Origin: a virus
Direction: 5' to 3' (one strand)
Virus record (IMG/VR): IMGVR_UViG_3300045988_017219
Length of the DNA: 42,166 nucleotides
The notes below the pieces were generated by a model. That model had not been told where the DNA came from and ran no database searches. It was given only the letters and a program-made list of their open reading frames with translations. Position numbers and translations under genes: made by a program. Numbering within the stretch: the stretch's first letter is position 1; each line of letters starts with the position of its first letter. Below, in pieces: positions 9,170-33,315 of this stretch.

Positions 9170-9198
9170 TTGACTGATTACGCAAATCGTAGTATAAT
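9170..9198 (+). promoter_or_regulatory. Consensus-like sigma-70 promoter TTGACT-17 nt-TATAAT driving the antirepressor cassette
   Basis: Read directly. The short inverted repeat CGTA...TACG brackets the -35 box. Confidence 0.7.
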
Positions 9199-9235
9199 AT
9201 ATCTTGTGAGTGAGAGGGGCGGAAAGGAGACGCCC

Positions 9236-9331: not shown

Positions 9332-9426
9332 CCACTCGAAGATAAGAGAAACCAACCCAACAAAAAAGCTCCTCTTACTCACATTTTATTTTATTTATAA
9401 GAAAAAGTCAAGTAAAATGTGAGGTC

Positions 9427-10465: not shown

Positions 10466-10477
10466 CTGAATCACCGA

Positions 10478-10507
10478 CCCTGCCCCACACCGGGGCGGGG
10501 TTTTGTT
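10478..10507 (+). terminator. Rho-independent terminator ending the antirepressor cassette
   Basis: CCCTGCCCC-ACACC-GGGGCGGGG followed by TTTTGTT. Confidence 0.65.
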
Positions 10508-10523
10508 ATACATGGAGTATAGC

Positions 10524-10976
10524 ATGAATTTCAACTACGACATCAAATTCACCGACAACACCCCGCAGCTGCATGAGGCGCTGGATTCATGGGCGGAGCG
10601 GGTGCTTACCATCTGGGGCATGAAGGTGCAGGACTACGCCCAGCTGCTTGTGCCTACTGGCACGGAGGAAAGCACAGGCATACAGGGCTATGTGGGCGGT
10701 GCGCTCAAGCAGAGCCTGACCTACGCCCTCGACCTCGCAAAAAAGACCGTGACCATCGGCAGCAATCTGTTTTACAGCGTGTATGTGGAGCTGGGCACGG
10801 GCGTCTTTGCCGAGAAGGGCAACGGACGAAAAACGCCGTGGGTCTGGAAGGACTTTAACGGCAAGTGGCACTTTACCCGGGGCATGAAAGCCCGTCCGTT
10901 CCTCCGCCCGGCGGTGGAGGACCACATTGAAGAGCTGCGGCAGATCGCCGTGGAGGAAGGGAACAAGGAGGCGTAA
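10524..10976 (+). CDS. HK97 gp10-family head-tail/tail-completion protein
   Basis: RBS GGAG lies before the ATG at 10524. The segment YSVYVELGTG...ARPFLRPAVE fits the gp10 family pattern. Its position ahead of the scaffold gene is unusual. Confidence 0.65.
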   Translation: MNFNYDIKFTDNTPQLHEALDSWAERVLTIWGMKVQDYAQLLVPTGTEESTGIQGYVGGALKQSLTYALDLAKKTVTIGSNLFYSVYVELGTGVFAEKGNGRKTPWVWKDFNGKWHFTRGMKARPFLRPAVEDHIEELRQIAVEEGNKEA

Positions 10977-10979
10977 TTT

Positions 10980-11195
10980 ATGAATTTGGAGAAAATGTTC
11001 AAAACACCAAAAGAAAAGTTCCTGCCCGATGATGTGAAAACTGCGCACTGCGAGGCAGAAGACCTTTTCCTTGAGCTTGCAACGCAGCTTGACGCACTTC
11101 CTGAAAGCCGAGAAAAAAGTCTGTGCATGACAAAATTACAGGAAGCGAAGTTTTGGGCGGTCGAATGTATCACCAAAGTTGCACGCAAAAACTAA
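10980..11195 (+). CDS. Hypothetical 71-aa protein
   Basis: ORF of good coding look, followed by a hairpin plus T-tract. No family recognised. Confidence 0.5.
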   Translation: MNLEKMFKTPKEKFLPDDVKTAHCEAEDLFLELATQLDALPESREKSLCMTKLQEAKFWAVECITKVARKN

Positions 11196-11235
11196 ATACT
11201 CAGCGGTTGGCGCACAGCGTCAGCCGCTTTTTTAT

Positions 11236-11312
11236 GCCGCTTTAGCTCAGGCCGGCAGAGCACCGGATTTGTAATCCGGGGGCCGTGGGTTCAAGCCCCA
11301 CAGGCGGCACCA
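11236..11312 (+). tRNA. trnT: tRNA-Thr (anticodon TGT), CCA end encoded
   Basis: I hand-folded a cloverleaf. Acceptor GCCGCTT/AGGCGGC, D-arm GCTC-AGGCCGGCA-GAGC, anticodon stem CCGGA/TCCGG with loop TTTGTAA, T-arm GTGGG-TTCAAGC-CCCAC, discriminator A, then CCA. Confidence 0.9.
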
Positions 11313-11387
11313 CACCGGCAGCACGTCCGGCAAATAAACCTTATTGCCAAGCATGGCAGCCCGAGCAAGGGCAGAAAGGACTATCAC

Positions 11388-11975
11388 ATGGCACTTGAGA
11401 GAAAAGACCTCCGCGCAATTCTGGAGGATGAGACCGTGGACGTCAGCGGCAAGATGAAGAAGATTCTGGACATGCTGCACACCGAAACGGACGCTCTTCA
11501 GAACCAGCTGGATGACGCCAAGGCCGCGACCGCCAAGGCCGAGAAGGAGCGGGACGCCGCCGCCAACGGCAAGACCATTGCGGAAAAGGCGCTGACCGAT
11601 TACAAGGCCCAGCAGACCCAGAGAGACGCCCACGCAGCAAAGGAAGCCAAGTTCCGGGAGTTGCTGAAGTCCGCCGGGGTGCTGGACAAGTATGCTGATC
11701 GGGTCGTGCGGCTGTCTGGCGAGGATATCGACAAGCTGGAGCTGGACGATAAGGGCAACGTCAAGGACGCCAAGAAGCACGCCGACAGCCTGAAAGCTGA
11801 TTGGAGCGACTTCGTAGGCACTACGACCACCACCGGCGCGAAGGTGGACAACCCGCCCACCAACACCGGCTCCAAAATGACCAAAGACCAAATTTTTGCA
11901 ATCAAGGACGCTGGCGAACGCCAGGCCGCGATTGCTGCAAATGCCGACCTGTTTACAGGCGGCGGAAAGGAATAA
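11388..11975 (+). CDS. Scaffolding protein (GP20-like)
   Basis: It lies directly before the major capsid gene. It is a charged coiled-coil protein (LQNQLDDAKAATAKAEKERDAA...). Confidence 0.7.
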   Translation: MALERKDLRAILEDETVDVSGKMKKILDMLHTETDALQNQLDDAKAATAKAEKERDAAANGKTIAEKALTDYKAQQTQRDAHAAKEAKFRELLKSAGVLDKYADRVVRLSGEDIDKLELDDKGNVKDAKKHADSLKADWSDFVGTTTTTGAKVDNPPTNTGSKMTKDQIFAIKDAGERQAAIAANADLFTGGGKE

Positions 11976-11978
11976 CAT

Positions 11979-12878
11979 ATGGCAGCAAAAGAAGGTATCA
12001 CCATGACCACCGATATCACCGTAGCCGCGCGTGAAATCGACTTTGTGACCCGCTTCCAGCGCAACTGGGACCATCTGCGCACCATTCTGGGCATCATGCG
12101 CCCCATCCGGATGCAGCCTGGCACCGTGCTCAAGAGCAAGTATGCACAGGGCACCCTGCAGAGCGGCACCGTGGGCGAGGGCGAAGAGATCCCGTTCAGC
12201 AAGTACACCGTCAAGGAGAAGGAGTACGGCAAGATCACCATCGACAAGTACGGCAAGTCTGTCACCATTGAGGCAATCCAGAATTACGGATACGATGTCG
12301 CCGTGCAGAAGACCGATGATGAGTTCCTGTACGACCTGACCGCTCTGGTAACGGATAAGTTCTACAAGTTCCTGAACACCGGCACCCTGAAGGGCACTCC
12401 CAAGACCTTCCAGATGGCGCTGGCACATGCCAAGGGCGCGGTCGAGAACAAGTTCAAGACCATGCATCGCACCGTGACCGGCGTTGTTGGCTTTGTCAAC
12501 GTGATGGACGTGTACGACTATCTGGGCAATGCCAATATCACCGTGCAGAACCAGTTCGGCTTCCAGTACATCAAGGACTTCATGGGTTACAACACCATCT
12601 TCCTGCTGTCCGACAGTGAGATCGCGAAGGGAAAGGTTATTGCCACCCCGGTAGACAACATCGTCATGTACTATGTGGATCCTGCGGATAGCGAGTTTGC
12701 CCGCGCAGGTCTGGTCTACCGGACCGCAGGCGAGGCAAGCAACCTCATCGGCTTCCACACTCAGGCAAACTACAGCACCGCAACCTCCGAGAGCTACGCC
12801 ATTATGGGCGTGACCCTGTTTGCTGAGTATCTGGACGGTATCGCTGTCGAGACCATTACCCCGGGTGAATCGGTCTAA
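11979..12878 (+). CDS. Major capsid protein (HK97-fold, SPP1 gp13-like)
   Basis: Supported by position, size, and typical text (REIDFVTRFQRNWDHLRTILGIMRPIR...). Confidence 0.85.
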   Translation: MAAKEGITMTTDITVAAREIDFVTRFQRNWDHLRTILGIMRPIRMQPGTVLKSKYAQGTLQSGTVGEGEEIPFSKYTVKEKEYGKITIDKYGKSVTIEAIQNYGYDVAVQKTDDEFLYDLTALVTDKFYKFLNTGTLKGTPKTFQMALAHAKGAVENKFKTMHRTVTGVVGFVNVMDVYDYLGNANITVQNQFGFQYIKDFMGYNTIFLLSDSEIAKGKVIATPVDNIVMYYVDPADSEFARAGLVYRTAGEASNLIGFHTQANYSTATSESYAIMGVTLFAEYLDGIAVETITPGESV

Positions 12879-14071: not shown

Positions 14072-14632
14072 ATGAACAAAATGTATCACGCCATTTCGGC
14101 AGATGCTTTCAAAAAACTTCAGTTTCAGGCGGGTGCGCTGCTCAAGAAGTTTGACCCGGCGGGTACAACCCCCATTGCTGCAGAAGATCTTATCTGCCTG
14201 ACCTCCGGCGGCATCACCATTTCCTGCAAGCCCAACACCATTGATCTGGGCGAGGATCTGGACGAAGTGCCCGAGAACACCTACCAGCTCAAGCACATCA
14301 CCAGCTGGGATTGCGGTATGTCCACCACCTGCATGACCGTGAGCGCCGACACCATTAAGCTGGAGCTGGGCGCTGCGGACGTTGAAACCAACAAAATCAC
14401 CGTGCGCGAAGACTACAAGGACACGGACTTCCAGGACATCTGGTGGCATGGCAACCTGATCGGCGGCGGTTATGCCGCGGTTAAGCTGATGAAGGCTGTG
14501 AGCGATGGCGGCATCGAGCTGAAAACCACCAAGGACGGAAAGGGCAACATCAGCCTGAGCTTGAAGGGTCACTACGACATGACCGACACCAGCAAGGTGC
14601 CTATGGAGTTCTACGTCAAGGAGGCAGAATAA
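14072..14632 (+). CDS. Major tail protein
   Basis: Order (before the chaperone pair and tape measure), size, and a beta-rich sequence. Confidence 0.7.
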   Translation: MNKMYHAISADAFKKLQFQAGALLKKFDPAGTTPIAAEDLICLTSGGITISCKPNTIDLGEDLDEVPENTYQLKHITSWDCGMSTTCMTVSADTIKLELGAADVETNKITVREDYKDTDFQDIWWHGNLIGGGYAAVKLMKAVSDGGIELKTTKDGKGNISLSLKGHYDMTDTSKVPMEFYVKEAE

Positions 14633-15100
14633 ATGATCCTTACCATCAATCTTGACCCCGTGGAAGCGCTGCCCAAGCTGTATGATGCGGTGGACGGAAT
14701 CACACGCATGGTCATGGACGCAAAGGACAACGTGGATAACCCGGAGACCAAGGCAGCTCGGGAGACCATTGTTGCGAACGCCCTGAAGATGCTGGGTGCA
14801 GAGCCGCAGCCCGGTGAAAAGAAAAAGCTGACACCGCGCGAGTTTGCGCTTGCCGCGCTGGACTTTGTCAAGCCTCTGATGAAACTTGACCCTGAGCGCA
14901 CCGTGAACGCCCTGCACCAGCTGTACACGCTGGAAGAGGGCGAAAAAGACACCCTGCCCAAGGCGTTTACTGCACTTACCAAGTCCGTGATGCAGAAAGA
15001 CGTGCAGGATTTTTTGTCCTCGCTGGCAGACTTGAACGGCCTGAGTTTTGGCACTACGTCTGCCGAGCCGACCTCCAGCATCTCCGCGCATACGGCTTAA
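14633..15100 (+). CDS. Tail assembly chaperone (gpG analogue)
   Basis: Immediately upstream of the tape measure gene, acidic, and contains a slippery site at 15010-15016. Confidence 0.65.
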   Translation: MILTINLDPVEALPKLYDAVDGITRMVMDAKDNVDNPETKAARETIVANALKMLGAEPQPGEKKKLTPREFALAALDFVKPLMKLDPERTVNALHQLYTLEEGEKDTLPKAFTALTKSVMQKDVQDFLSSLADLNGLSFGTTSAEPTSSISAHTA

Positions 15101-21455: not shown

Positions 21456-21614
21456 ATGTTGTATCGTATCTGTAAACGCCTGATCGAGCGCGGACAGACC
21501 GCTGGTCTTGCGGACAAGCTGGACGTGTTCTACGCCATTGGACGCATCACCGAGGCCGAGTACAAGGAGCTGACCCAGCTGCTGGCCCAGCAGGAGGCCG
21601 TCCATGGCGCTTAA
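21456..21614 (+). CDS. xkdX: XkdX-family small phage protein
   Basis: 52 aa ending in ...GRITEAEYKELTQLL, the XkdX signature. It follows a fibre gene. Confidence 0.6.
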   Translation: MLYRICKRLIERGQTAGLADKLDVFYAIGRITEAEYKELTQLLAQQEAVHGA

Positions 21615-21736
21615 TGCCTACTCTTGGACATTGGGGGGTGATCGCAATAAACAACACATTTTTGACCGCACTTTTTAACTTTTTGAGCCGTTTCTTTGCC
21701 GCTTTGGCGGAAGAACAGGTAGAACAGGAGGACACA

Positions 21737-22444
21737 ATGGCATCTGTGACTGAGGTGACCGAGTGGACGGGAGCACCGCCCTACCGCTACATCGACGTAA
21801 GCCGGTATCAGGGCAGCATTACACTGGAGGGCTGGAAGAAGGTCAAGGCCGCTGGCTATCAGGGCGTCATGCTCAAGACCGTCAGCACAAACCGCAGGCT
21901 CTCCAAGCGAGCAGACGGCCTGTACATCGACCCGACCTTTGAAGCAAACTACCGCAACGCAAAGGCGGCAGGTCTGGCGGTGGGCGTGTATTACTATACC
22001 TACGCCACCAGCGAGGCGATGGCCGATGCAGAACTTTCCTTGCTGGCTGACGCTCTGCGTGGCAAGACGCTGGAAATGCCTGTAGCAGTGGACGTGGAGA
22101 ACAACAAATTCAGGGTTCTTGGCAAGCAGGCGTTGACCGACCTGACAGCCTACGCCCTGAAAAAGGTGGAAGACATGGGTTTTTATGCCCAGCTCTATAC
22201 CTACACCAGCTTTGCTAAGACGCGCCTGTATATGGGCGGTGCTGCCCTCAGCCCCTACGACGTGTGGCTGGCCGACTACACGGGAAAGACACCTGCCGTG
22301 ACCTTTGCCTACAACACTCACCAGCACACCAGTAAGGGCAGCGTACCTGGCATTTCCGGTCACGTTGACCTCAATGTGACCACACGCAACTACCCGAAGA
22401 TCATCTGCAAGAAGGGTCTGACCCGTCTCCGGGAGGGCAAATGA
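21737..22444 (+). CDS. Endolysin, glycoside hydrolase family 25 muramidase
   Basis: RBS AGGAGG lies before the ATG at 21737. YIDVSRYQGSI...GVYYYTYA...DVWLADY is typical of GH25. No obvious cell-wall-binding domain. Confidence 0.85.
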   Translation: MASVTEVTEWTGAPPYRYIDVSRYQGSITLEGWKKVKAAGYQGVMLKTVSTNRRLSKRADGLYIDPTFEANYRNAKAAGLAVGVYYYTYATSEAMADAELSLLADALRGKTLEMPVAVDVENNKFRVLGKQALTDLTAYALKKVEDMGFYAQLYTYTSFAKTRLYMGGAALSPYDVWLADYTGKTPAVTFAYNTHQHTSKGSVPGISGHVDLNVTTRNYPKIICKKGLTRLREGK

Positions 22445-22830
22445 CCGAAAAAGAAGCTCTACTGTGGGTGCTGGGCATCCTGGGCAGCCTGTGCGCTGCG
22501 GTCATCACCATCGACAAGGTGCTGGACATCATCCACAAGTACATCAAAAAGGCCGGAGCGCCGGACGAGGCGCAAAACAAGCGGCTTGACGACCTTGACC
22601 GGCGTGTTGGCGCACTGGAAACCGGCTATACCCAGCACACAGCGGCACTTTCCCGCGATTTGAGCCGCTTTGGAGACATCGACGAAGTGAACCGCCTGAC
22701 CCTGCAGGCCGTGCGTGCCTTGCTAGAAGCGCAGCTCACCGGAAATAACGTTCAGGCCATGCAGAAAAGCAAGGCCGAAATTGACAACTATTTGACAGAA
22801 GGAGTAACGAAACATGGCAGCAATTCTTAA
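22441..22830 (+). CDS. Membrane-anchored coiled-coil protein of the lysis cassette (holin-associated?)
   Basis: An N-terminal TM segment (LLWVLGILGSLCAAVITI) is followed by a coiled coil. ATGA overlap with the endolysin gene. Confidence 0.5.
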   Translation: MTEKEALLWVLGILGSLCAAVITIDKVLDIIHKYIKKAGAPDEAQNKRLDDLDRRVGALETGYTQHTAALSRDLSRFGDIDEVNRLTLQAVRALLEAQLTGNNVQAMQKSKAEIDNYLTEGVTKHGSNS

Positions 22831-23149
22831 TTTCATCCCCGCACCCGTCGCAATCGTTCTCATCATCGTCGGCTTTGTGGCTCTGGCAGTCGGCGCTATC
22901 CGCATGGGCTATAAGCAGCTGGTCAAAGATCTGGCCTATGACCTCGTGTGCAAGGCCGAAGACAGCATCATGGGCAGCGGCCAGGGCGCAAAGAAAAAGA
23001 AGCAGGTCTTTGACGCGCTGCGTGCGGCCTGCCCTGCATGGCTGAAGCCTATCATCACGGATGAAGTGCTTGACGCGGTGATTGAAAAGGCCGTAAGCCT
23101 GATGAAGAAGGCACTGGCAGAAAAGAAGCCTACCATCAACAAGGAGTAA
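22814..23149 (+). CDS. Holin, LL-H-like family
   Basis: An N-terminal TM segment (PAPVAIVLIIVGFVALAVGAI) is followed by a charged helical tail with the ...KAEDSIMGSGQGAKKKKQVF... pattern. Confidence 0.55.
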   Translation: MAAILNFIPAPVAIVLIIVGFVALAVGAIRMGYKQLVKDLAYDLVCKAEDSIMGSGQGAKKKKQVFDALRAACPAWLKPIITDEVLDAVIEKAVSLMKKALAEKKPTINKE

Positions 23150-23152
23150 CCC

Positions 23153-25141
23153 ATGATTGAGCTAAGCGTATCTCTCGCATCCAATGGCGTCGTCAAAGTG
23201 CCGGGCTATGAGCAGCTGGTGCGCTTTGGCTACACCAAGAATCAGGGCGTGTACCGCCTGCACATCGATGCAACCGGTGAGTGGGAAGGCCTGACTATCC
23301 GGGCTTTCTGGCACGTCCCGGACGGCAAAGACCCGGCATCCTCACTGGTGACAGACGGCTCTGTGGCCGTGCCTGCCAGCGTGACCGCACAGCCCGGCAA
23401 TGGCTGCATCACCTTTGAGGGCTCAGATGGCACCCGCACCGTGACAAGCGCAGACCTGCGCTACCGTGTGGCTGCCAACTCCGGCACGGAGGACGGCACA
23501 GAGCCGGAGCCTAGCACACCTGCCTGGCAGGAGCTGGTGGATGCCGTGCACACTGACGCCGCCGCCGCAGAGCAAGCAAAGACCGATGCACAGACGGCAG
23601 CGCAGCAGGCTGGGGTATCTGCCAAAGCCGCCCAGACCGCCGCCAGTGAAGCAGCCACCAGTGCTGGCAATGCAGCCCAGAGCGCTCAGGAAGCCGCTGA
23701 CAGCTTACAGGAGCTGAAGGACGGCATTGCCGCTGGTGACTTCAAAGGCGAGAAAGGCGACAAGGGCGACACTGGCCCCGTCGGCCCGCAGGGCGAGCAG
23801 GGGCCGCGTGGCATTCAGGGCGAGCGCGGCCCGCAGGGTGCGCAGGGGCCGAAAGGAGACACCGGCGACACTGGACCACAGGGGCCACAGGGCCCAGTCG
23901 GCCCGGCAGGTGCAGACGGCAAAGATGGCACACAAATTGATGATACCACCGTGGGGCTTGACGCATGGAGCAGCAAGCACATCGTGGATATGCTCTGCCC
24001 ACCGCTGGAGGAGACCGGGAACCCTGTTGTGTTCTACCCTGTGGCAGACTATCCGCTGGGTGTGACTGCCAGCTGGGAACCTGTGCAGGAGGGCAGCGGT
24101 GACCCAAGCCCGGACAACATCCGGCCTATCAAGGGGCGGGACAGTGTGAAGGTGGAGCGGTGCGGGGGGAATGTTATTGAGTTTTTAAGAACAAATGATT
24201 CCCATGAAAGCGTTAAAATAGCAGTAGACGCAGAAAAAAATATTACGCTTAACGGAGCATTAACTCGCGGAGCCAATATCATAATTGGAATGTGTCGGCT
24301 GCATTGGGTTGCGGGAAAAACCTACACCATGTACGTCAAGAAGGTGGGCGGCAGTGCCTCTCTTGGAAGCGGTGACGGCATTACTTTTGCCTATTCGCTG
24401 TTCACGCAGGATTATAATCGTTACTTCCATGGTGATACACGCAGCACAAACCTTAATGCGTATATTGCAAGCGATGCTGCGCTGGCAGAAACCGAGCTTG
24501 TTTTTATGCTGCAATGCTGGCGAGCAAATACAGTATTCAACAACTTCAAATTCCAAATCGAAGTTGTTCCTGGCACTACCGCCCCTACCACCTACGCCCC
24601 ATACACCGGCCAAACCGCCACCCTCACTCTGCCCCGCACCATCTACGGCGGCACGGTGGATGCAGTGACGGGAGAGGGGCAGGAAACGTGGAAAATAGCA
24701 ACCATTGATGCTAAAAAAATCAAATTCTCATCTGATGGTAATGATAGATTTTGGAATTTGCCGTACCACACAGCAGATGGTGCAACTGGCGCATCTAAAA
24801 TTATATGCAGCCATTTCATTTCCTCTACATTTTTAGTAAATGAACCATATGCGTTCTTTTTTACGCAGCCAAACCGTTTGCAGAACTTGTTCTCAAGTGT
24901 AGATGAGCTGAATGATTATTGTGCTGCACAATATGCCGCAGGAACGCCTGTGCAGATTGTGTATCAGTCGCTGAAAGAGCCTGTGCCTTTTACAGCCACC
25001 GGAGCGCAGCCTATCCCCGCCCTCCCCGGCGTGAACACCATCATGACCGACGCGGACAGCGTGATGGTGACCGGAAGAGCAGACCCCATTAAGCGCATCA
25101 CTGACCTTGAGGATGCTGTGGCATCAATGACCGACACATAA
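23153..25141 (+). CDS. Tail fibre 2 with collagen-like triple-helix repeat
   Basis: 662 aa. It has an Ala/Gln-rich coil and 20 uninterrupted G-X-Y triplets. AT-rich patches (about 24170-24570 and 24690-24960 by eye) lie in the C-terminal domain. Confidence 0.85.
23747..23929 (+). repeat. Collagen-like G-X-Y x20 coding repeat
   Basis: The translation [61 protein letters not shown] was read directly. Confidence 0.95.
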
Positions 25142-25390: not shown

Positions 25391-25609
25391 ATGGCAAGCA
25401 CTACATACCGCCATCTCGGTGACGTCACCGGGATGTTCGCCGCACAAGAACAATTTCGTGACATCACGAAAATGGTGACAAAACGTCACCATTTTGCCGT
25501 GCTTGGCAATATGGTGCGCAACGCCGGACAGCTCCCGCAGCCCTTCTGGCTCGGTGCTGCCTGTGGCGGCGGCTCGCGTAGTGCTGCCCGCTGCGCTGCA
25601 AAGGCTTGA
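25391..25609 (+). CDS. Hypothetical 72-aa ORF (may be a leader or the N-terminal part of a frameshifted regulator)
   Basis: A perfect SD TAAGGAGGA lies 7 nt before the ATG. However, the ORF is built over three GTGAC palindromes and overlaps the next ORF by more than 100 nt in another frame. Confidence 0.3.
   Translation: MASTTYRHLGDVTGMFAAQEQFRDITKMVTKRHHFAVLGNMVRNAGQLPQPFWLGAACGGGSRSAARCAAKA
25418..25490. promoter_or_regulatory. Cluster of three GTGAC-based inverted repeats (operator-like)
   Basis: GGTGACGTCACC at 25418-25429, CGTGACATCACG at 25457-25468, and GGTGAC-AAAAC-GTCACC at 25474-25490. Confidence 0.45.
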
Positions 25610-25787
25610 CCGACAGAGGATGATCGCCACCATCAAAAGCGCACCGCTTGGGAGGGTAGACCGTAAGATAGCCTTACTGCGGTACGTTGAGCGGCTTCCG
25701 CTGCCGGACATTGCAGCACAGACGCATTACAGCCGGACGGCAATAGGCTACCGGTTGAAAGGCATTGAAAAAATGCTGAATGTGTGA
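25494..25787 (+). CDS. Sigma-70 region-4-like HTH regulator (second DUF1492/ArpU-like paralog); TTG start or frameshift fusion
   Basis: RKIALLRYVERLPLPDIAAQTHYSRTAIGYRLKGIEKML is a region-4-type HTH. The frame opens only at 25479 and has no ATG before 25619. Confidence 0.5.
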   Translation: MPCLAIWCATPDSSRSPSGSVLPVAAARVVLPAALQRLDRQRMIATIKSAPLGRVDRKIALLRYVERLPLPDIAAQTHYSRTAIGYRLKGIEKMLNV

Positions 25788-25840: not shown

Positions 25841-25876
25841 AAGCGGCAGGCTTTCGGGTATGCCGCTTTTCTTTTT
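25841..25876 (+). terminator. Rho-independent terminator
   Basis: AAGCGGCA pairs with TGCCGCTT, followed by TTTTCTTTTT. Confidence 0.6.
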
Positions 25877-25886
25877 GCACGAATTG

Positions 25887-25895
25887 TGGTATAAT
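25887..25895 (+). promoter_or_regulatory. Extended -10 promoter element TGgTATAAT
   Basis: Read directly. There is no good -35 box at the right spacing. Confidence 0.45.
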
Positions 25896-25901
25896 ATACC
25901 C

Positions 25902-26100
25902 AAGGAAACCCGACCGGCCTCTCAACGATGCGCATTAGGTCGGGTCATCCGAGAGCTAACTCCGTGCTCAACGGAGAATTAAAAAAGCAGTCGCCAGATT
26001 CGGCGCTGAACAGTCTCCCGCACGCCTACTTGCAGTGCGTACCATGCGGGAGACGCATAAAGCCCCCGGTGTTCCGTTTGGAGCATCGGGGGGTCTTTTT
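25902..26100 (+). ncRNA. Candidate small RNA of about 200 nt (orphan promoter-to-terminator unit)
   Basis: No RBS-preceded ORF. Helices pair at 25909-25915/25938-25944, 25960-25965/25971-25976 and 26014-26022/26045-26053. It ends in a strong + strand terminator. Confidence 0.35.
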
Positions 26101-26104
26101 GTTT
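26063..26104 (+). terminator. Rho-independent terminator (U-tract on the + strand)
   Basis: CCCCCGGTG pairs with CATCGGGGG, followed by TCTTTTTGTTT. It abuts the stop codon of the convergent minus-strand gene. Confidence 0.65.
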
Positions 26105-27548: not shown

Positions 27549-27818
27549 ATGGGTATCTCGGAAAAAAAGAAAAAGAGTAATGCCAAATGGGACAAAGAGA
27601 ACATGACGGTGCTGGCCTGCAAGGTGAGGAAGGAAGTTGCTGACAAGTTCAAAGCAGCTTGTGCGGCAGAAGATACGACCTCGAACGCCGTTTTACAGCA
27701 GGCGGTACGGGACTATATTGACGCCCACCCCGTGCCGGAAGAGCCAGAAGCACCGCCGGGGGATGCAGAGACGGAAGTTCGGCGGGCTGCATTGCTAGAA
27801 CAAATCAAGAATCTGTAA
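27549..27818 (+). CDS. Ribbon-helix-helix (Arc/MetJ/CopG-like) DNA-binding protein candidate
   Basis: RBS TAGGAGGTG. KWDKENMTVLACKVRKEVADKFKAACAAEDTTSNAVLQQAVRDYI fits a beta-strand plus two-helix RHH layout. It is divergent from the antirepressor operon. Confidence 0.55.
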   Translation: MGISEKKKKSNAKWDKENMTVLACKVRKEVADKFKAACAAEDTTSNAVLQQAVRDYIDAHPVPEEPEAPPGDAETEVRRAALLEQIKNL

Positions 27819-27840
27819 AATAGAATAGCTGAAAAATTAA

Positions 27841-27882
27841 GCGCTCACGCGGTGTAATGCCGTGTGGGCGCTTTTCTTTTTT
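27841..27882 (+). terminator. Rho-independent terminator
   Basis: A 12-bp stem pairs GCGCTCACGCGG with CCGTGTGGGCGC around the loop TGTAATG, followed by TTTTCTTTTTT. Confidence 0.7.
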
Positions 27883-27958: not shown

Positions 27959-28336
27959 ATGTGGCACAGGTTCAACCCGAACCCCCAAGGAAACGGCGTG
28001 GGGGATTGCACCGTGCGGGCAGTGGCGGCAGCTACAGGCCAAAACTGGGAGCGGGCATATATCGGCCTTGCACTCACTGGCTTTATCCTCGGCGATATGC
28101 CCAGCGCTAACCGCACATGGGGCGCATACCTCCAAAAACGCGGGTTCAAGCGCCGTTTGGTGGAGGCGGACTGCACCACCTGTTACACTGTGGCAGATTT
28201 TGCCCGGGAGTATCCGCGCGGCGTGTATGTGCTGGGCTGCTCCGGGCACGTCCTGACCGTGATCGACGGCGCGTGGTGGGACAGCTGGGACAGCGGTGCA
28301 GAATGCCCGATCTACTACTGGTATAAGGAGGACTAA
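27959..28336 (+). CDS. Papain-fold-like cysteine peptidase candidate (accessory operon gene 1)
   Basis: RBS GGGAGGGGG. The order Cys (GVGDCTVRAV), His (CSGHVLTVIDG), Asp (WWDSWDS) is as in C39/papain-like folds. The family is not identified. Confidence 0.5.
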   Translation: MWHRFNPNPQGNGVGDCTVRAVAAATGQNWERAYIGLALTGFILGDMPSANRTWGAYLQKRGFKRRLVEADCTTCYTVADFAREYPRGVYVLGCSGHVLTVIDGAWWDSWDSGAECPIYYWYKED

Positions 28337-28339
28337 ACG

Positions 28340-28789
28340 ATGCCGTACAATCCATATGGCTATCAAATGCCAAACTACTACGGGCAGCCTATGCCTGACC
28401 AGCTCACGCAGCTGCGGCAGAATGCCGGGTATCAGCCGCCCATGATGAGCCAACCGACAGGGCAAAGCTCCCCATCTACGCCTCCGATCATCTGGGTGCA
28501 GGGCGAAGAGGGGGCAAAAGCCTACATGGTAGCCGCCGGGAACAGCGTGCTCTTGATGGATAGCGAGAACAGCGCCTTTTACATCAAGAGCACGGACGCA
28601 AGCGGAATGCCGCTGCCGCTCAGGGCCTTTGATTACAAGGAGCGCACCACGGCAGCTAAGATGCCCGCTCAGGCCGTCCAACAGCCCGGCGGGGAGTTTG
28701 TCACCAGGGCAGAGTTTGACGCCCTGGCAGCCCGCTGTGCAGCGCTGGAAAAGCAGGAGCCCACAAAAACCGAAACGGAGGTCAAGTGA
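28340..28789 (+). CDS. Hypothetical protein with a P/Y/Q-rich N-terminus and a conserved-looking core (IWVQGEEGAKAYMV...FYIKSTDASGMP)
   Basis: Tightly packed after gene 1 (3-nt gap). Confidence 0.5.
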   Translation: MPYNPYGYQMPNYYGQPMPDQLTQLRQNAGYQPPMMSQPTGQSSPSTPPIIWVQGEEGAKAYMVAAGNSVLLMDSENSAFYIKSTDASGMPLPLRAFDYKERTTAAKMPAQAVQQPGGEFVTRAEFDALAARCAALEKQEPTKTETEVK

Positions 28790-28791
28790 TC

Positions 28792-29019
28792 ATGGCAAAT
28801 CCTCTTTTTAATGCACTGGGCGGCGGCAAAGCATCATCCATGCCCGGCCCTATGGGCCAGTTCGGCCAGATGATGCAGCAGTTCCAGCAGTTCAAGGCTA
28901 ATTTTCAGGGCGATCCAAAGCAGGAGGTGCAAAAGCTCCTGCAATCCGGGCGGATGAGCCAAGACCAGCTCAACCAGCTTCAGGCAATGGCTCAGCAGTT
29001 CCAGCAGTTTTTACACTAA
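28792..29019 (+). CDS. Small Gln-rich protein (alternative GTG start at 28786)
   Basis: RBS GGAGG upstream. Low-complexity QQFQQF repeats occur at both ends. Confidence 0.45.
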   Translation: MANPLFNALGGGKASSMPGPMGQFGQMMQQFQQFKANFQGDPKQEVQKLLQSGRMSQDQLNQLQAMAQQFQQFLH

Positions 29020-29080
29020 GTCGTAACCGTGGCCACGGTTTAGATACACTTTTATCAAAATTTCCGAAAGGAGTACAAAA

Positions 29081-29857
29081 ATGTCTCTTTCTTCCGATTC
29101 TGCGGTTCTGACCATGCCGGTTCAGCCCGCAAACACCAACGGCAGCAACGGCTTTGGCTTTGGCAATGATGGCGCATGGTGGATCATCATCCTGTTCCTG
29201 TTCGCCTTCTGCGGCGGCTGGGGCGGCAACTGGGGAGGCAATGGCAACACCGGTGCCGGTGTCGTTGACGGCTACGTCCTGACCTCCGATTTTGCCAACA
29301 TCGAGCGCAAGATGGATGGTATCAACAACGGCATGTGTGATGGCTTCTACCAGCAGGCGCAGCTTGTCAACGGCGTGCAGCAGACCGTGAACAACGGCTT
29401 TATGTCCGCAGAGATCAGCCGCGCAAACCAGCAGGCCGCTTTCATGCAGCAGCTCTTTGCGATGCAGATGCAGCAGCAGGAGTGCTGCTGCGAGAACCGC
29501 TCTGCCATTCAGGGCGTCAACTACAATTTGGCCACCCAGTCCTGCGAGACCCGGAACACGGTGCAGAACACCACCCGGGACATCATCGACAACCAGAACC
29601 AGAACGCCCGCGCCATCCTTGACGCCCTGACCGCGCAGCGCATCGAGGCAAAGGACGCAAAGATCGCTGAGCAGGGTCAGCAGCTGTTCGCAGCACAGCT
29701 TGCGGCATCTCAGGCAGCCCAGAACGAAACGCTCAAGGCCTACATGAGCGGTCAGCTGGCCTACTACAACCCGCGCCCTGTGCCCGCATTCCAGGTACCC
29801 GCACCCTACCAGTACGGTAACTGCGGCAACGGTTGCGGCTGCAACGGTTGCGGCTAA
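29081..29857 (+). CDS. Membrane protein with a Gly/Asn/Trp-rich TM region, a Q/N-rich coiled coil with a CCC motif, and a C-terminal GNCGNGCGCNGCG tail
   Basis: RBS AAAGGAG. The sequence was read directly. A terminator follows. Confidence 0.6.
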   Translation: MSLSSDSAVLTMPVQPANTNGSNGFGFGNDGAWWIIILFLFAFCGGWGGNWGGNGNTGAGVVDGYVLTSDFANIERKMDGINNGMCDGFYQQAQLVNGVQQTVNNGFMSAEISRANQQAAFMQQLFAMQMQQQECCCENRSAIQGVNYNLATQSCETRNTVQNTTRDIIDNQNQNARAILDALTAQRIEAKDAKIAEQGQQLFAAQLAASQAAQNETLKAYMSGQLAYYNPRPVPAFQVPAPYQYGNCGNGCGCNGCG

Positions 29858-29924
29858 CCGAATAACGGCAACTGACTGCAAATTGTAGTCTGTTCAGCCC
29901 CTGAGCTGATTTTGCAAACCAGAG

Positions 29925-29951
29925 CGCCGGGGCAAAAGTCCCGGCGTTTTT
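29925..29951 (+). terminator. Rho-independent terminator inside the accessory locus
   Basis: CGCCGGG-GCAAAAGT-CCCGGCG followed by TTTTT. Confidence 0.6.
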
Positions 29952-29971
29952 CTATGAAAGGAGCCGATAAA

Positions 29972-30394
29972 ATGGCTGAATTTAGCAACTCTAATACCGT
30001 TAGCGTGGCGGCGGGTGAAAACCTTCCCCTGACCGAGACCGCGGTGAAAGCCCCTGCCTGCATCATGCACCGTGAGGGCAGCGGCCTCGTGACCCTGCGC
30101 GGTCTGACCAATCAGTGCAGGGCCCGCTTCAAGGTAATCTTTGGCGGCAATGTCGCCATTCCCACCGGCGGCACTGTGGGGCCCGTTTCCGTGGCGCTGG
30201 CTGTCGGCGGTGAGTCGCTGACCAGTGCGACTGCCATTGTCACCCCGGCGGCAGTCGAAAATTACTTCAACGTTTTCGTGGCCGCGTTCATCGAGGTGCC
30301 GCGCGGCTGCTGCGTGACTGTGGCGGTTAAGAACACCAGCGCGCAGGCGGTCAACATTGCAAACAGCAACCTGATCGTTGAGCGGGTAGCATAA
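29972..30394 (+). CDS. BclA-C-terminal / C1q-TNF-like jelly-roll domain protein (candidate)
   Basis: RBS AAAGGAG. The text is beta-rich with the ending ...VNIANSNLIVERVA, reminiscent of the BclA C-terminal domain ending ...SIIIEKVA. Assigned from memory only. Confidence 0.45.
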   Translation: MAEFSNSNTVSVAAGENLPLTETAVKAPACIMHREGSGLVTLRGLTNQCRARFKVIFGGNVAIPTGGTVGPVSVALAVGGESLTSATAIVTPAAVENYFNVFVAAFIEVPRGCCVTVAVKNTSAQAVNIANSNLIVERVA

Positions 30395-30410
30395 GAAAGG
30401 AGATAAAGTC

Positions 30411-30812
30411 ATGCTGGATAAACTGAATCATCTGAAGGATGAGATGTGCGACGAGCTCATGGAACTGACCGACAAAAAGAACCGTTCCCCGGGCGATGTT
30501 GAGATGATCGGCGAGATCGTGGACATCATTCTGGACATCCACCGCATCGAGGATTACTGCGAAGGCGGCGAGTACAGCCGAACAGGCGAGTGGGAAGCTG
30601 ACATGCGGGGAACCTTTGGCCGCGATGCTGGAAACGGGTACAACCGGGGAAACAGCTACGCCAACCGTGGCCGTCACTATGTGCGCGGTCACTACTCCCG
30701 CACGGATGGCCGTGAGCGCATGATCTCTGACATCGAGGACATGATGCAGGAGGCCACCGGCGCAGAGCGCGATGCATACAAGCGGGCCGCTGACATCTTG
30801 CGCAACGCATAA
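30411..30812 (+). CDS. Hypothetical protein with a helical N-terminus, a G/N/R/Y-rich centre and a helical C-terminus
   Basis: RBS AAAGGAG. No family recognised. Confidence 0.5.
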   Translation: MLDKLNHLKDEMCDELMELTDKKNRSPGDVEMIGEIVDIILDIHRIEDYCEGGEYSRTGEWEADMRGTFGRDAGNGYNRGNSYANRGRHYVRGHYSRTDGRERMISDIEDMMQEATGAERDAYKRAADILRNA

Positions 30813-30829
30813 GAAAGGGGGCGGCAGGC

Positions 30830-31159
30830 ATGGACATTGACGAGATCAACACCCACATTCACAAGCTGAAATGTGGTTCAACGGACTGGCAGAGCGTGGA
30901 AAAGCTTGCCGCCCTCTGCACTGTGCGGGACGAGCTGGAAGAAAAGCAGGCACGTAAAACGCAGACCCAGGCATTGCCGCCCGCGACTTATGCGGCGGCG
31001 TACTCCACGGCAACGGAACCGCAAAGCGACTTTGTGACGGCTGCCAGCTCTGTTCCTTTCGGCGGTCTGATGCAGGTGCTCGACGAACACATGAAGGCAA
31101 TAAAGCTGGCGTACCCGAAAGAGTATGAGCTAGTGATGCGGAAGATAAGCGACTTGTAA
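30830..31159 (+). CDS. Hypothetical protein (last gene of the accessory operon)
   Basis: RBS-like GGGGGCGGCAGG. The ORF ends just before the AT-rich att region. Confidence 0.5.
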   Translation: MDIDEINTHIHKLKCGSTDWQSVEKLAALCTVRDELEEKQARKTQTQALPPATYAAAYSTATEPQSDFVTAASSVPFGGLMQVLDEHMKAIKLAYPKEYELVMRKISDL

Positions 31160-31271
31160 AAAGACATAGAATGTGCTATTTTTACATAAGCTTCAGCGTT
31201 TTGGCACGGGGTGCATAGTCTAACAACAAGTCAACAAATCAATAATTATTTACGTTAATACATCAAATAAA

Positions 31272-31321
31272 CTTGATTTGTAATCAGTGGGTTGCAGGTT
31301 CAACTCCTGTCACCAGCTCCA
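31272..31321 (+). other. 3' portion of a tRNA-Thr(UGU) gene = putative attP core
   Basis: It contains the anticodon loop TTTGTAA, stem TCAGT, T-arm GCAGG-TTCAACT-CCTGT, acceptor 3' strand CACCAGC, then T and CCA. No matching 5' acceptor strand (GCTGGTG) lies upstream. It sits about 110 nt from the integrase gene end. Confidence 0.6.
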
Positions 31322-31328
31322 AAAATAA

Positions 31329-31366
31329 ACGCACGAACGATGAAAACGAATCGTTCGTGCGTTTTT
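31329..31366. terminator. Bidirectional terminator (13-bp perfect stem)
   Basis: ACGCACGAACGAT pairs with ATCGTTCGTGCGT. TTTTTCTTTTT lies on the + side and an A-tract lies before the stem, which gives a U-tract for the minus-strand int transcript. Confidence 0.7.
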
Positions 31367-31432
31367 CTTTTTGCTTGAAATGCCTTGAAATCTCCTGAAT
31401 GAATGCGATAATCCAACAAACAATCTAACAAG

Positions 31433-32566
31433 TCAGTACTTCATCTTCTGCATTTCCCGCAACAAATATGTCGGATCGTTGTGGGACACGTACTTATTGG
31501 CCGTGGTGGAGAAATTTTTGTGCCCGAGGATTGCCTGTACCGCGGTCTTTTCCAGGCCGCACTCCACCATCTTACTACTGGCCGTGTGGCGCAGCGTGTG
31601 TGGATGCACGCCCTCTATATGGCATTCCTGCATCAACGCCCGGAACTTTGTAGCCACGTTGCGCTTATCCAGCTTTGTGCCGGCCTTGGATGGAATCAGC
31701 CATTCGCACCCGCTGTCAAGCATCCAAAAGGAAATGATCTTGTAAATGGGCTCAAGGATGGGGATGATGCGGTTCTTGCCCGCTTCTGTCTTTTCACCGC
31801 CCTGCATGTACCGCTCTTTCAGATGCACATCCTCGCAGCGCATGGAAAGCAGCTCGTCGATGCGCATGCCGGTATAAAGCAGTACCATTGCGATTTGCGC
31901 CGTCTGCCCAAACCTCGGGTCGTCTTGTCGGCTGCTGATCTGCTCGATCTCTTGGGCGGTCAGGGTGCGCTCTGCTTTTCCTGTAGCCGCCGGGAGCTGC
32001 AGCAGCATGGCATAATTTTTGTTTATGATGTCCTGCGCCATTGCCCACTCGCAGATCTGGCTAAAAAGCGTGCGCTGTTTTTCACAGGAGCTTCGGGAGA
32101 GCCCTTTTTCCACCATTGCGTCAATGACCTGTTGATAATCTGCCGCTTTTAAGTCCCGCAATTGTCGGTCGTATAGCGGCGCAGCCTTTGCATAGGCCAG
32201 CTCGTACCCCTTTTGCATGTCCGTGCTGAGCTTTTGAAACTTTGGCTGAGCTTTCCATTGGGTATAGGCATCTGCAAAGGTGCATTTCAGAAGCGCAGCG
32301 GGGGTGTTCTGGGCGTTGTAAGCGTCCAGCGCTTGTACTGCTTCGCCTGCCGTTTCAAACGTTCCCAGAACATCCCTGCTGGCTGTGAGTGCAACATACG
32401 GTCTTGCCCGCGTCCCGCTCAGTTTATACACGCTGCCGCTGCCCTTTGGGCGGCGGCGCTTTTTTCTTTGCTGCGGGGCGGCTTCCGGCTGTTTCTTTCC
32501 GCACCACGGACAAAAAGAAGCACCATCCGGGATCTCTTTCCGGCAGCATGGTCTCACGCATTTCAT
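31433..32566 (-). CDS. int: Tyrosine recombinase / phage integrase with an N-terminal zinc ribbon
   Basis: The C-terminal catalytic text is HPHTLRHTASSKMVECG...ILGHKNFSTTANKYVSH. The N-terminus is CCRKEIPDGASFCPWCG. Confidence 0.9.
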   Translation of the reverse strand: MKCVRPCCRKEIPDGASFCPWCGKKQPEAAPQQRKKRRRPKGSGSVYKLSGTRARPYVALTASRDVLGTFETAGEAVQALDAYNAQNTPAALLKCTFADAYTQWKAQPKFQKLSTDMQKGYELAYAKAAPLYDRQLRDLKAADYQQVIDAMVEKGLSRSSCEKQRTLFSQICEWAMAQDIINKNYAMLLQLPAATGKAERTLTAQEIEQISSRQDDPRFGQTAQIAMVLLYTGMRIDELLSMRCEDVHLKERYMQGGEKTEAGKNRIIPILEPIYKIISFWMLDSGCEWLIPSKAGTKLDKRNVATKFRALMQECHIEGVHPHTLRHTASSKMVECGLEKTAVQAILGHKNFSTTANKYVSHNDPTYLLREMQKMKY

Positions 32567-32569: not shown

Positions 32570-33157
32570 TTACTCCTTTTTCTGCCCGATATATCCGAAT
32601 GCACCATTTTCAGCAGCGGCCCTTCCGGCCCTGTAGTTGATCTTCAGGTCGTCAATGGGAGGATGCGGAGCGTCCGGGCATGGGTCAAGGCCAGCAATCT
32701 GCGCATAGGTATACTGGTCTATGATGGTCCCGCACACGCTGACCCGGTTGTTGAGTGGGCAGTGCAGGTTTGCTGCCATCTCGGAGATCACCGCAGGCGG
32801 ACTGCTGCCGTGTCGGCCCTTCAGAATGAAAAGCAGCAGTCGCTTCGTGATGGGCGGCAGAGCCCTCATCAGCAGATGCAGCTCCCGATCTACAGAATCT
32901 TCCAGCCTTTCGATGTCGGAAACCGCATACAGATCTGGGTGCATCATCTCCATAAACACGGTGATGGGGGACACCCCACATGCTGTGCACCAATCCATGA
33001 CCTCGTCACTGTCCGGGCTGGTGCAGCCTTTTTCCCAGCTCTGTACCGTCCTCTCACCCTTCTCGATGAGCCTTGCGATCTCCACTTGGCTCAGGCCGGC
33101 AGATACCCTGGCCTTTGCAAGCGCTTTTCCAATCTGGGTTGCCGTAAAATAACTCAT
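32570..33157 (-). CDS. XRE-family HTH protein with an unknown C-terminal domain, co-oriented with int
   Basis: ATG at 33157. The HTH is GKALAKARVSAGLSQVEIARLIEKGERTVQSWEKG. There is a 3-nt gap to the int start. Confidence 0.7.
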   Translation of the reverse strand: MSYFTATQIGKALAKARVSAGLSQVEIARLIEKGERTVQSWEKGCTSPDSDEVMDWCTACGVSPITVFMEMMHPDLYAVSDIERLEDSVDRELHLLMRALPPITKRLLLFILKGRHGSSPPAVISEMAANLHCPLNNRVSVCGTIIDQYTYAQIAGLDPCPDAPHPPIDDLKINYRAGRAAAENGAFGYIGQKKE

Positions 33158-33197
33158 ACTTTCGCCCCCATAAAACCAACGTGTTTTTAACAGAAAA

Positions 33198-33220
33198 TGG
33201 CGCAGAAAAAATCTGCGCCA
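33198..33220. promoter_or_regulatory. Perfect 9-bp inverted repeat TGGCGCAGA-AAAAA-TCTGCGCCA (operator or hairpin)
   Basis: Read directly in the divergent intergenic region. Confidence 0.4.
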
Positions 33221-33260
33221 TTCGACAAAAAATATCCGTATTTTGTTTTCCAACGGCGCA

Positions 33261-33269
33261 TGGTAGAAT
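33261..33269 (+). promoter_or_regulatory. Extended -10 element TGgTAGAAT
   Basis: Read directly upstream of the small + strand ORFs. Confidence 0.4.
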
Positions 33270-33315
33270 TTGGAACATAAGACATAAATGTGCACAAAAG
33301 AAAGGGGAAAACAAA

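Follow-up and report, generated by a model that had tools for sequence, protein, structure and literature searches.

A mobile accessory gene cassette of gut Clostridia phages that probably encodes a membrane-anchored complex

The stretch of DNA analysed here, called the window throughout, is the whole of IMG/VR virus record IMGVR_UViG_3300045988_017219 (42,166 nucleotides) and represents a temperate siphovirus-type genome of approximately 42 kb with a GC content of about 55%. A sequence-only reading of the window had singled out positions 27959–31159 as an accessory operon, and seven co-oriented plus-strand open reading frames (ORFs), designated g1 to g7, were found across this interval (Table 1). 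A GGAGG-like box was present 6–12 nt 5' of the start codon of each, bearing out the claim that every gene has its own Shine-Dalgarno site, and all of the motifs quoted from the translations were located (GDCTVRA, GHVLTV, DSWDS, GGWGGNWGGNGN, ECCCENRS, GNCGNGCGCNGCG and NLIVERVA). Ratios of non-synonymous to synonymous substitution (dN/dS) obtained with 64–80 close relatives were 0.10 for g1, 0.16 for g2, 0.30 for g3, 0.41 for g4, 0.10 for g5, 0.05 for g6 and 0.13 for g7, and spanned 0.04–0.49 across close-relative comparisons. These values indicate purifying selection, and the seven ORFs are therefore real genes. In the window, the block represents one copy of a horizontally mobile and apparently autonomous accessory cassette found in gut-Clostridia phages, the full unit of which consists of a regulator-like gene (r4), a terminator/TATAAT junction, (g1), g2-g3-g4, a structured spacer and g5-g6(-g7).

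Searches by tBLASTn, BLASTP and jackhmmer showed the arrangement g1-g2-g3-g4-g5-g6(-g7) in dozens of Clostridia phages and prophages that differ widely from one another. Carriers include Dulem virus 33, Dulem virus 35, the reportedly lytic Butyrivibrio phage Ceridwen and several human faecal phage scaffolds, with Dulem virus 39 keeping at least g4-g5, and the order is also present in many of 73 genome loci from Oscillospiraceae, Lachnospiraceae, Acutalibacteraceae, Ruminococcus, Subdoligranulum and related taxa. Compared with the window protein, g5 is 42–76% identical in the genome loci and as little as 38% identical in one phage scaffold, and g4 lies beside g5 essentially everywhere. The gene set thus co-occurs in many other phages, so that its absence as a conserved unit, named beforehand as an observation that would count against an accessory operon, does not apply.

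Four genomic contexts were distinguished. In the first, seen in approximately 16 loci including the window, an integrase gene (int) lies on the opposite strand 240–750 bp 3' of the cassette. In the second, the cassette is inside a head-gene module; this was observed in at least nine loci, and a major capsid gene is located 1–3.7 kb downstream in ten. In Dulem virus 35 it is flanked by an annotated minor capsid gene on one side and the capsid gene on the other, and locus L150 has TerL upstream of it. The third context places the cassette directly after int at the other prophage end, and the fourth, in Ceridwen, after the lysin gene. Within integrated prophages it forms the last or first block before host genes. 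Given these four contexts, the cassette is a mobile accessory unit landing in accessory hot spots, neither a fixed morphogenetic part nor confined to a lysogenic-conversion slot. The lysogenic-conversion position originally proposed describes the window correctly, in that the block abuts the attachment site (att) and int and is bracketed by terminators, but this is one context only, at least nine loci having the cassette in a head module. An immunity cassette had also been described as its upstream neighbour; what lies there is a minus-strand Rha/Ant antirepressor and a ribbon-helix-helix gene, not a CI-type module, and the CI-type immunity gene lies beyond int.

Phage morons are autonomous accessory transcription units, exemplified by bor and lom of lambda and gp15 of HK97. 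Like them, the cassette is inserted between syntenic phage genes at varied positions, often beside att, and is flanked by terminators with a promoter-like box. It differs in size, having six to eight genes where morons have one or two, in its dedicated sigma-r4-like regulator, and in occurring in an apparently virulent phage as well.

The head-module and lytic-phage contexts, together with fold matches to fibre tips described below, make a late lytic or virion-associated accessory function the main rival explanation. The products would in that case serve as a fibre, a knob with g5 as its trimeric tip, a capsid or tail decoration, or a membrane-located aid to assembly or egress. We regard this as unlikely, while giving it appreciable weight. 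Besides lying inside the head module in at least nine loci, the cassette is elsewhere found after lysis or tail-fibre genes, and it is kept in Ceridwen, a phage seen only in the lytic cycle. On the other side, it moves between unrelated backbones and positions and is insulated by terminators even inside head operons, and in the window the slot between the MuF and capsid genes is occupied by unrelated low-GC accessory DNA and a tRNA.

Insulation is apparent at both ends of the unit. The sequence-only reading had placed terminators on either side of the block and one within it, and hairpins were located at all three sites (Table 1). The terminator 5' of g1 is kept in close relatives, and head-module copies of the cassette also have terminators (L083 5180–5211; L150 6137–6177 and 9022–9047). 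Further upstream, the r4 gene encodes a sigma-70 region-4-only helix-turn-helix (HTH) protein with matches to Pfam Sigma70_r4, Sigma70_r4_2 (weak) and GerE and to phrog_36. Homologues of r4 (66–97 aa) were found 55–320 bp 5' of g1 or g2 in most of the approximately 50 divergent loci that carry one, and by this recurrent placement r4 appears to belong to the cassette as a conserved upstream partner. In terms of the virion-associated rival, r4 could be a very-late activator. A GC-rich hairpin followed by a T-run and, a few bases on, a TATAAT-like box was present 3' of r4 in 46 of 104 distinct stretches, compared with 7% of shuffles, and in most lineages g1 or g2 starts 20–60 nt past the box. The unit accordingly looks insulated from upstream transcription and provided with its own promoter. 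The window departs from the usual arrangement in that an opposite-strand Rha/Ant module and a ribbon-helix-helix gene (g0) are inserted between r4 and g1. A homologue of g0, which has a weak RHH_10 match, is present in only eight loci, and g0 is probably outside the cassette. A sigma-70 promoter directly 5' of g1 in the window was looked for and not found, and the conserved bases there form no -35/-10 boxes.

The spacer of approximately 110 nt between g4 and g5 is also structured. Its three hairpins recur in many of 54 divergent spacers, and the ten base pairs identified by RNAalifold belong to hairpin 2 and the terminator stem, each of them showing compensatory double changes. No Rfam family matched the spacer. 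The most economical interpretation is that it acts as an attenuator or 3'-end element parting g(1)2-4 from g5-7. Neither this element, nor r4 and its terminator-promoter junction, nor the allele dimorphism of g2-g3-g4 had been detected in the initial reading.

That dimorphism emerged when 78 relatives of the window lineage were compared. While g1, g5 and g6 have median identities of 88–97% to the window, g2, g3 and g4 fall into two types, one window-like at 79–100% identity (with a single g2 exception, L070) and the other divergent, with approximately 52% identity for g2, 34% for g3 and 41% for g4. Each type is found in roughly half of the relatives, and a change of type nearly always involves all three genes at once. 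On this evidence g2, g3 and g4 are probably a co-adapted trio whose products interact. The pattern suggests that alternative specificities of the trio are maintained in the population, as is typical of host-range, immunity and exclusion determinants; such swapping of alleles of adjacent genes, being typical of host-range modules, also fits a virion-associated function. Residues 1–18 of g4 (29081–29134; MSLSSDSxxLTMPVQPAN) are the same in both allele types, and this constant segment could mark a recombination boundary or a lineage-specific partner constraint.

In the g2 protein, a P/Y/Q-rich head precedes a conserved beta-type core (WVQGE..AK.Y.VA....LLMDSE..FYIKS.D.SGMP), and a helix (YVTRxEFxAL) forms the C-terminus. 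The g3 protein is a Q-rich helical protein of 75–77 aa whose N-terminal motif, M.NPLFN.LGG, contains an invariant NP. The g4 protein is by its sequence a single-pass membrane protein, with a transmembrane segment at approximately residues 32–46 whose strong hydrophobicity is kept in 56 representatives (mean hydropathy over 13 residues 2.47). A glycine/tryptophan belt (GWGG) follows this segment and leads to Cys86, and the long N/Q-rich region beyond it holds an invariant CCC (135–137). A further cysteine is conserved as well, and the protein ends in a PxPIPAY-type proline segment and a terminal GCGC..GCGC-type Cys tail. Alignment of the family established that the cysteine motifs remarked on in the window protein are conserved family features. 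Among the cassette products only g4 has a transmembrane segment, and none has a signal peptide. A genuine, strongly hydrophobic segment of this kind is unusual in a particle fibre, which argues against the virion-associated explanation, while products devoid of signal peptides are as expected for cytoplasmic assembly and agree with it.

Both flanks of the g4 transmembrane segment are nearly devoid of Lys and Arg, and the N-terminal flank is acidic. On these charges the predicted topology leans weakly towards N-out/C-in, while some homologues, for example that of L090, have a basic N-terminal flank favouring N-in. The opposite orientation, N-in/C-out, is central to a second rival explanation, in which the cassette builds a lysogenic-conversion envelope structure: g4 would form a Cys-tipped stalk on the surface, serving the gut lysogen as an adhesin or protective layer. 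The moron-like layout beside att accords with this, as do the basic flank of the L090-type homologues, the Pro-rich segment and terminal Cys cluster of g4, which are often found in surface fibrils, and the exosporium-like list of parts (TNF-like, Cys-rich and R/S/Y-rich proteins). However, g5 and all the other partners lack export signals and so could not join an external g4 stalk, the flank charges across the g4 family lean weakly the other way, and head modules and a lytic phage also carry the cassette. An envelope structure of this sort is accordingly thought improbable.

Its N-terminal transmembrane segment, long helical-looking domain and conserved cysteines give g4 some resemblance to spanins (Rz/Rz1) and other helical-domain phage membrane proteins, and g4 is often near lysis genes, a spanin-like placement. 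It differs from spanins in having neither a lipoprotein partner nor a lipobox, and the cassette is also found far from lysis genes, inside head modules. An assignment of g4 as spanin or lipoprotein was rejected on the lack of a lipobox and on its hosts, Clostridia being monoderm. Nor was there support for co-variation of the g4 N-terminal peptide with the type of g5, by analogy to the ExsF-anchor peptide, as L089 combines the common N-terminal type with a different protein at the g5 position.

The g5 protein had been suggested to resemble the C-terminal (C1q/TNF-like) domain of the exosporium protein BclA. An AlphaFold2 (AF2) model generated from 134 sequences of 52–93% identity was all-beta with ten strands and a mean predicted local distance difference test (pLDDT) score of 93.8. 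When it was compared with the PDB by Foldseek, 91 matches at E <= 1e-3 were obtained. These were led by the F-BclA C-terminal domain (9h38), BclA (1wck/2z5w; TM-score 0.74), BxpB (8d02) and ExsFA (7r1m), and further matches included the TNF ligands EDA (1rj7) and 4-1BBL, C1q (1pk6) and adiponectin. TM-scores for the best matches were 0.59–0.76, the lowest E being 2e-6. An invariant GCC (112–114) and Cys30 are additional features of g5. It is therefore predicted to be a stand-alone TNF/C1q/BclA-type jelly-roll, and the suggested resemblance, which would have fallen had no jelly-roll been predicted, is upheld by the model. By sequence, g5 is not a member of the BclA, C1q or TNF families: neither g5 nor any of the 134 family members gave a Pfam match to BclA, C1q or TNF, and the family profile found no PDB chain below E 0.18.

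The fold of g5 also matches phage parts, namely the phi812 central spike, the short fibre of cyanophage A-1(L) and the A4 tail complex, and these are the matches that favour a virion-associated role. At 50% identity the g5 family resolves into 849 clusters, and public metagenomes contain more than 7,900 distinct relatives of g5. The 150 best of these clusters are represented by proteins of 83–196 aa in which a single matched stretch covers most of the protein, and among these 150 no fusion to a fibre shaft, a collagen-like region or any other domain was found, which weighs against a fibre component.

Superposition of g5 on BclA, BxpB and ExsFA extends over the whole length (TM-score 0.71–0.76; E 2e-6 to 5e-5). 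In common with BxpB and ExsFA, g5 is a stand-alone domain of approximately 140–170 aa without a stalk and is paired with Cys-rich proteins. Unlike BclA, it has no collagen-like region, no N-terminal attachment motif and no detectable sequence similarity, and unlike exosporium proteins it is phage-encoded, always beside a transmembrane protein, and without a spore context. These comparisons bear on the earlier idea of a spore-associated assembly, in which the spore surface of the host would receive BclA/BxpB-like and Cys-rich proteins from the prophage. Many Lachnospiraceae and Oscillospiraceae sporulate, the best fold matches of g5 are to exosporium proteins (BclA, F-BclA, BxpB, ExsFA), and the compositions of g4 and g6 recall spore-coat proteins. 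Set against this, no exosporium family is related in sequence, TNF-like folds are generic and occur in phage tips too, and no collagen-like partner is fused or consistently linked. Moreover, the cassette is carried by the lytic Butyrivibrio fibrisolvens phage and by Lachnospira, and to our knowledge neither B. fibrisolvens nor Lachnospira sporulates. Since the Butyrivibrio host is on this understanding non-sporulating and its phage has been seen only in the lytic cycle, a spore link is very improbable; the likeness to exosporium parts lies in fold and composition and does not extend to homology or context. A connection of g5 to the collagen-like fibre gene of the window, after the BclA/BxpB pairing, was discarded, close relatives carrying the cassette without the collagen-like gene.

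In three variant cassettes (L085 7734–8153, L089 6646–7086 and L090 1601–1972) g5 is replaced by an unrelated Cys-rich beta-type protein of 123–146 aa. The substitute starts MACKTSCKLC.., MGCKNICKLC.. or similar, with a Cys-rich layout reminiscent of endospore-appendage subunits, and the same three variants use a different, 80-aa form of g3.

Of the remaining products, g6 has helical ends around an R/G/Y/S-rich loop (GGYS..RG.SY..RG.HYVRGHYSR; 43 homologues aligned), and g7, the least widespread member of the cassette, is a helix-linker-helix protein with homologues in 98 loci by jackhmmer.

For g1, a papain/C39-like fold had been proposed on the order of its Cys, His and Asp residues. Cys17, His97 and Asp108 were invariant in 121 sequences of 46–62% identity, and an AF2 model built from these had a pLDDT of 95.8. 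DSSP assignment of the model placed Cys17 at the opening of helix 17–26, His97 at the opening of strand 97–102 and Asp108 at the close of strand 105–108, so that in the model the arrangement, a Cys at a helix N-terminus with His and Asp on adjacent strands, is papain-like. This Cys-His-Asp order and placement are common to g1 and papain-like cysteine peptidases (C39, Josephin/USP deubiquitinases and transglutaminase-core enzymes), but at 125 aa g1 is much smaller and its PDB fold matches have E values of at least 0.7. The best of them, Josephin-2 (E 0.68, TM-score 0.43), is weak and not significant, and further weak matches were to PaTox, MCF, USP-type deubiquitinases and PLpro. In BFVD, the viral structure library, many uncharacterised phage proteins share the fold; one of the matches carries the label 'Peptidase C39 domain' (E 1.6e-3), and another is to a Josephin-domain protein (E 0.089). 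None of the 121 family members was matched by a Pfam model for peptidases or transglutaminases, and the family profile found no match among PDB sequences. The layout and invariant triad of the papain/C39 proposal thus stand, while fold matches to solved papain-like proteins fall short of significance.

Relatives of g1 without the rest of the cassette occur in Bacillus Tsamsa-like phages (annotated 'putative peptidase'), Geobacillus GBK2 and Lak megaphages. A further explanation would accordingly be that the block is not one system, with g1 an independent papain-like gene (for example for deubiquitinase-like counter-defence) and g2-g4 and g5-g7 separate modules that share a hot spot. That g1 relatives occur alone, that g1 is often split from g2 by insertions and that its best PDB matches are deubiquitinase-type folds are all consistent with this, as is the recombination of g2-g4 apart from g5-g7 with a terminator-like element between the halves. 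Yet virtually every locus has g4 next to g5 despite 40–75% protein divergence, the whole g2-to-g6 order is kept in three different genomic contexts, and where g5 is replaced another small Cys-rich beta protein fills its position. Separate modules are on balance judged an improbable explanation.

Database searches yielded little on function. Pfam, NCBIfam and PADLOC scans of all seven proteins gave no matches. In PHROGs, g1 to g5 matched families at E 1e-22 to 4e-60, all of 'unknown function' (g1 phrog_3754, 4e-28; g2 phrog_21718, 1e-33; g3 phrog_22984, 1e-22; g4 phrog_16490, 8e-46; g5 phrog_20016, 4e-60); g6 matched weakly and g7 had no match. Precomputed Pfam annotation of homologues in six other contigs was empty for every cassette gene, and family profiles of g1, g2, g4, g5 and g6 searched against all PDB sequences found no solved structure. 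Literature searches returned nothing on the cassette or on phage BclA/BxpB-like proteins, and the phage collection held no cultured close relative of the window phage. The view that the products are unlike standard phage functions is borne out, as they form a conserved accessory set that Pfam, NCBIfam and PADLOC do not recognise.

We consider it likely that the cassette is an autonomous unit encoding a membrane-anchored complex. In the mechanism envisaged, g4 would insert in the cytoplasmic membrane, probably N-out/C-in, and its long N/Q- and Cys-rich domain, with the co-adapted g2 and g3, would nucleate a complex there, to be joined by g5 (probably as a trimer), g6 and g7. The g1 protein may process or crosslink Gln-rich partners, and the g4-g5 hairpins would set the ratio of the operon's two halves. 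Assembled in this way, the cassette might block other phages at the envelope, by superinfection exclusion or a defence-like block. Such a part in phage–phage conflict is suggested by an insulated unit lying in prophage hot spots with dimorphic, specificity-like alleles. Taken by itself, an exclusion or defence role at the cell envelope is possible but doubtful; the complete account, with both mechanism and envelope conflict role, is our best explanation and is offered tentatively, as short of an even chance. A role in virion construction or spore biology is probably not the correct one.

Several observations weigh against this account. Known exclusion proteins are usually single small membrane proteins, not sets of six to eight genes, and a search of eight proteins against PADLOC-DB gave no match at E <= 1. 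In composition (rich in Q/N/P/Y, in Cys and in RG/Y) the products resemble structural or self-assembling material more than a sensor and effector. Ceridwen, which infects B. fibrisolvens, has no integrase and has been observed only in the lytic cycle, and in head modules the cassette could be expressed late. The topology call for g4 is weak because its flanks are almost without Lys or Arg, and g1, being found alone in unrelated phages, may lie functionally outside the cassette. In the window, no consensus sigma-70 promoter was found immediately before g1, and the r4 junction is 2.2 kb 5' of g1 with the oppositely oriented Ant module between them.

The compositional features could also be accommodated by a phage-made self-assembling layer or condensate anchored by g4, built of the low-complexity, Gln/Asn/Tyr/Pro- and Arg/Gly/Tyr-rich proteins g2, g3 and g6 and capped by g5 trimers, matured by g1 as a minimal papain-like or transglutaminase-like enzyme, switched on by r4 and having interchangeable g2-g3-g4 types. 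Phages of gut Clostridia would in that case have reinvented, for the infected or lysogenic cell, something analogous to exosporium or spore-coat assembly; we view this reading as rather unlikely.

Oscillospiraceae and Lachnospiraceae are among the most abundant human gut bacteria, and a conserved unit of six to eight genes that moves between backbones with its own regulator must matter to phages or lysogens. Were the envelope block correct, the cassette would represent a new type of exclusion or defence without a recognisable enzyme-based effector; were the structural assembly correct, exosporium-like architecture would have its first counterpart in phages. The unit is now defined by its gene boundaries, regulator, promoter-like junction, RNA element and two natural allele types, and cultured carriers are available in phage Ceridwen, Lachnospira intestinalis CLA-AA-H89B and Lachnospiraceae JLR.KK009.

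Table 1. Coordinates of the cassette and of other features of the window
Feature	Position	Strand	Remarks
tRNA-Trp	4372–4447		5' of terminase gene
MuF-capsid gap	8811–11979		small lower-GC ORFs (45.6%); low-GC DNA 9001–10000
tRNA-Thr	11236–11312		within MuF-capsid gap
299-aa ORF	11979–12878		major-capsid position; no Pfam match
Endolysin	21614–22444		
Holin	22814–23149		
Collagen-repeat fibre protein	23153–25141		662 aa
r4, sigma-70 region-4-only HTH protein	25494–25787	+	likely start ATG 25620
Terminator-promoter junction	25843–25895	+	hairpin 25843–25866, T-run 25867–25876, TGgTATAAT 25887–25895
Predicted structured non-coding RNA	25897–26102	+	about 200 nt
g0, ribbon-helix-helix-like small protein	27549–27818	+	
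Intrinsic terminator 5' of g1	27839–27882	+	16-bp stem 27839–27873 and T-run
g1	27959–28336	+	125 aa
g2	28340–28789	+	149 aa
g3	28786/28792–29019	+	77/75 aa
g4	29081–29857	+	258 aa
Structured g4-g5 spacer	29858–29971	+	hairpin 1; hairpin 2 29892–29906; terminator hairpin 29925–29946 and TTTTT
g5	29972–30394	+	140 aa
g6	30411–30812	+	133 aa
g7	30830–31159	+	109 aa
attP core candidate	31273–31322	+	3' half of tRNA-Thr(UGU)-like sequence; BLAST matches to tRNA-Thr genes
Bidirectional terminator	31327–31364		closes cassette and int
Tyrosine integrase (int)	31433–32566	-	PF00589 at 5e-31
CI-type immunity gene	32570–33295		beyond int

The predicted non-coding RNA, which follows the TGgTATAAT box in the window, is lineage-specific and ends in a terminator (minimum free energy -90.5 kcal/mol, z -5.36). 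One of its hairpins (25909–25945) reached 21 bits with the Rfam abiF model, for which the gathering score is 37, and a 15-nt loop stretch (GCCUCUCAACGAUGC) was identical to the model consensus; a second hairpin at approximately 26013–26054 appeared similar in layout by eye. AbiF-motif RNAs are antitoxin-like and neutralise AbiF toxins in Clostridioides difficile (PMC12373285; compare RCd22). As no abiF-like gene was noticed nearby, one may speculate that the window RNA is an orphan antitoxin-like copy acting as an anti-defence decoy; its link to the cassette is uncertain.

Other elements of this kind were encountered near the cassette in related loci. A DUF3800-VIII RNA above the gathering score occurs in L169 (7748–7811), in the non-coding stretch between r4 and g1. 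RAGATH-21 RNAs above threshold are present in L083 (8064–8140) and L087 (7121–7205), approximately 100–130 nt past g6, and in L150 (10409–10477), approximately 1.4 kb past it. L170 carries a gene of the Acb2/Tad1-hairpin family, an anti-CBASS/Thoeris sponge type, between its lysis genes and the cassette (6551–6745), and L168 an Ltp-type lipoprotein gene of the superinfection-exclusion family near the immunity region (14096–14665). The Acb2/Tad1-like gene, the Ltp lipoprotein and the abiF-like, DUF3800-VIII and RAGATH-21 RNAs together mark the region around the cassette as a conflict-gene island, a neighbourhood that speaks for the conflict role proposed above. In Dulem virus 33 (L001 8653–9291), an annotated opposite-strand endonuclease gene and an int-alpA RNA (46 bits, above gathering) lie between g3 and g4; the cassette evidently tolerates a mobile insertion at this point.

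The gene order of the window as a whole runs from the TerL, SPP1-type portal and MuF-like protein genes, followed by the accessory gap with its tRNA, to the ORF in the major-capsid position and the tape measure and tail protein genes. In Lachnospiraceae-type phages the same gap is the cassette site. The 662-aa fibre protein has collagen triple-helix repeats, with a G-X-Y run at approximately residues 198–262, and its gene is 3' of that for holin, outside the main tail module. The small sigma-like gene, the opposite-strand Rha/Ant antirepressor and the seven-gene block come after it, in that order, and beyond the block lie the tRNA-like att fragment, the minus-strand tyrosine integrase gene and a minus-strand HTH repressor gene.

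Many IMG/VR contigs end approximately 950 bp past g5, in keeping with the attP core candidate. In a close relative, comparison of circular and integrated contigs located the phage/host junction approximately 215 nt beyond g7, where the host tmRNA gene, a neighbour of smpB, has its 3' end. Relatives L168 and L169 (11190–11560; g5 89% identical) integrate at the tmRNA gene, while the att of the window is tRNA-Thr-like. Over the compared interval (window 31100–31440) similarity to L168/L169 stops at approximately 31147, indicating that the att region, and presumably int with it, was swapped at the end of g7.

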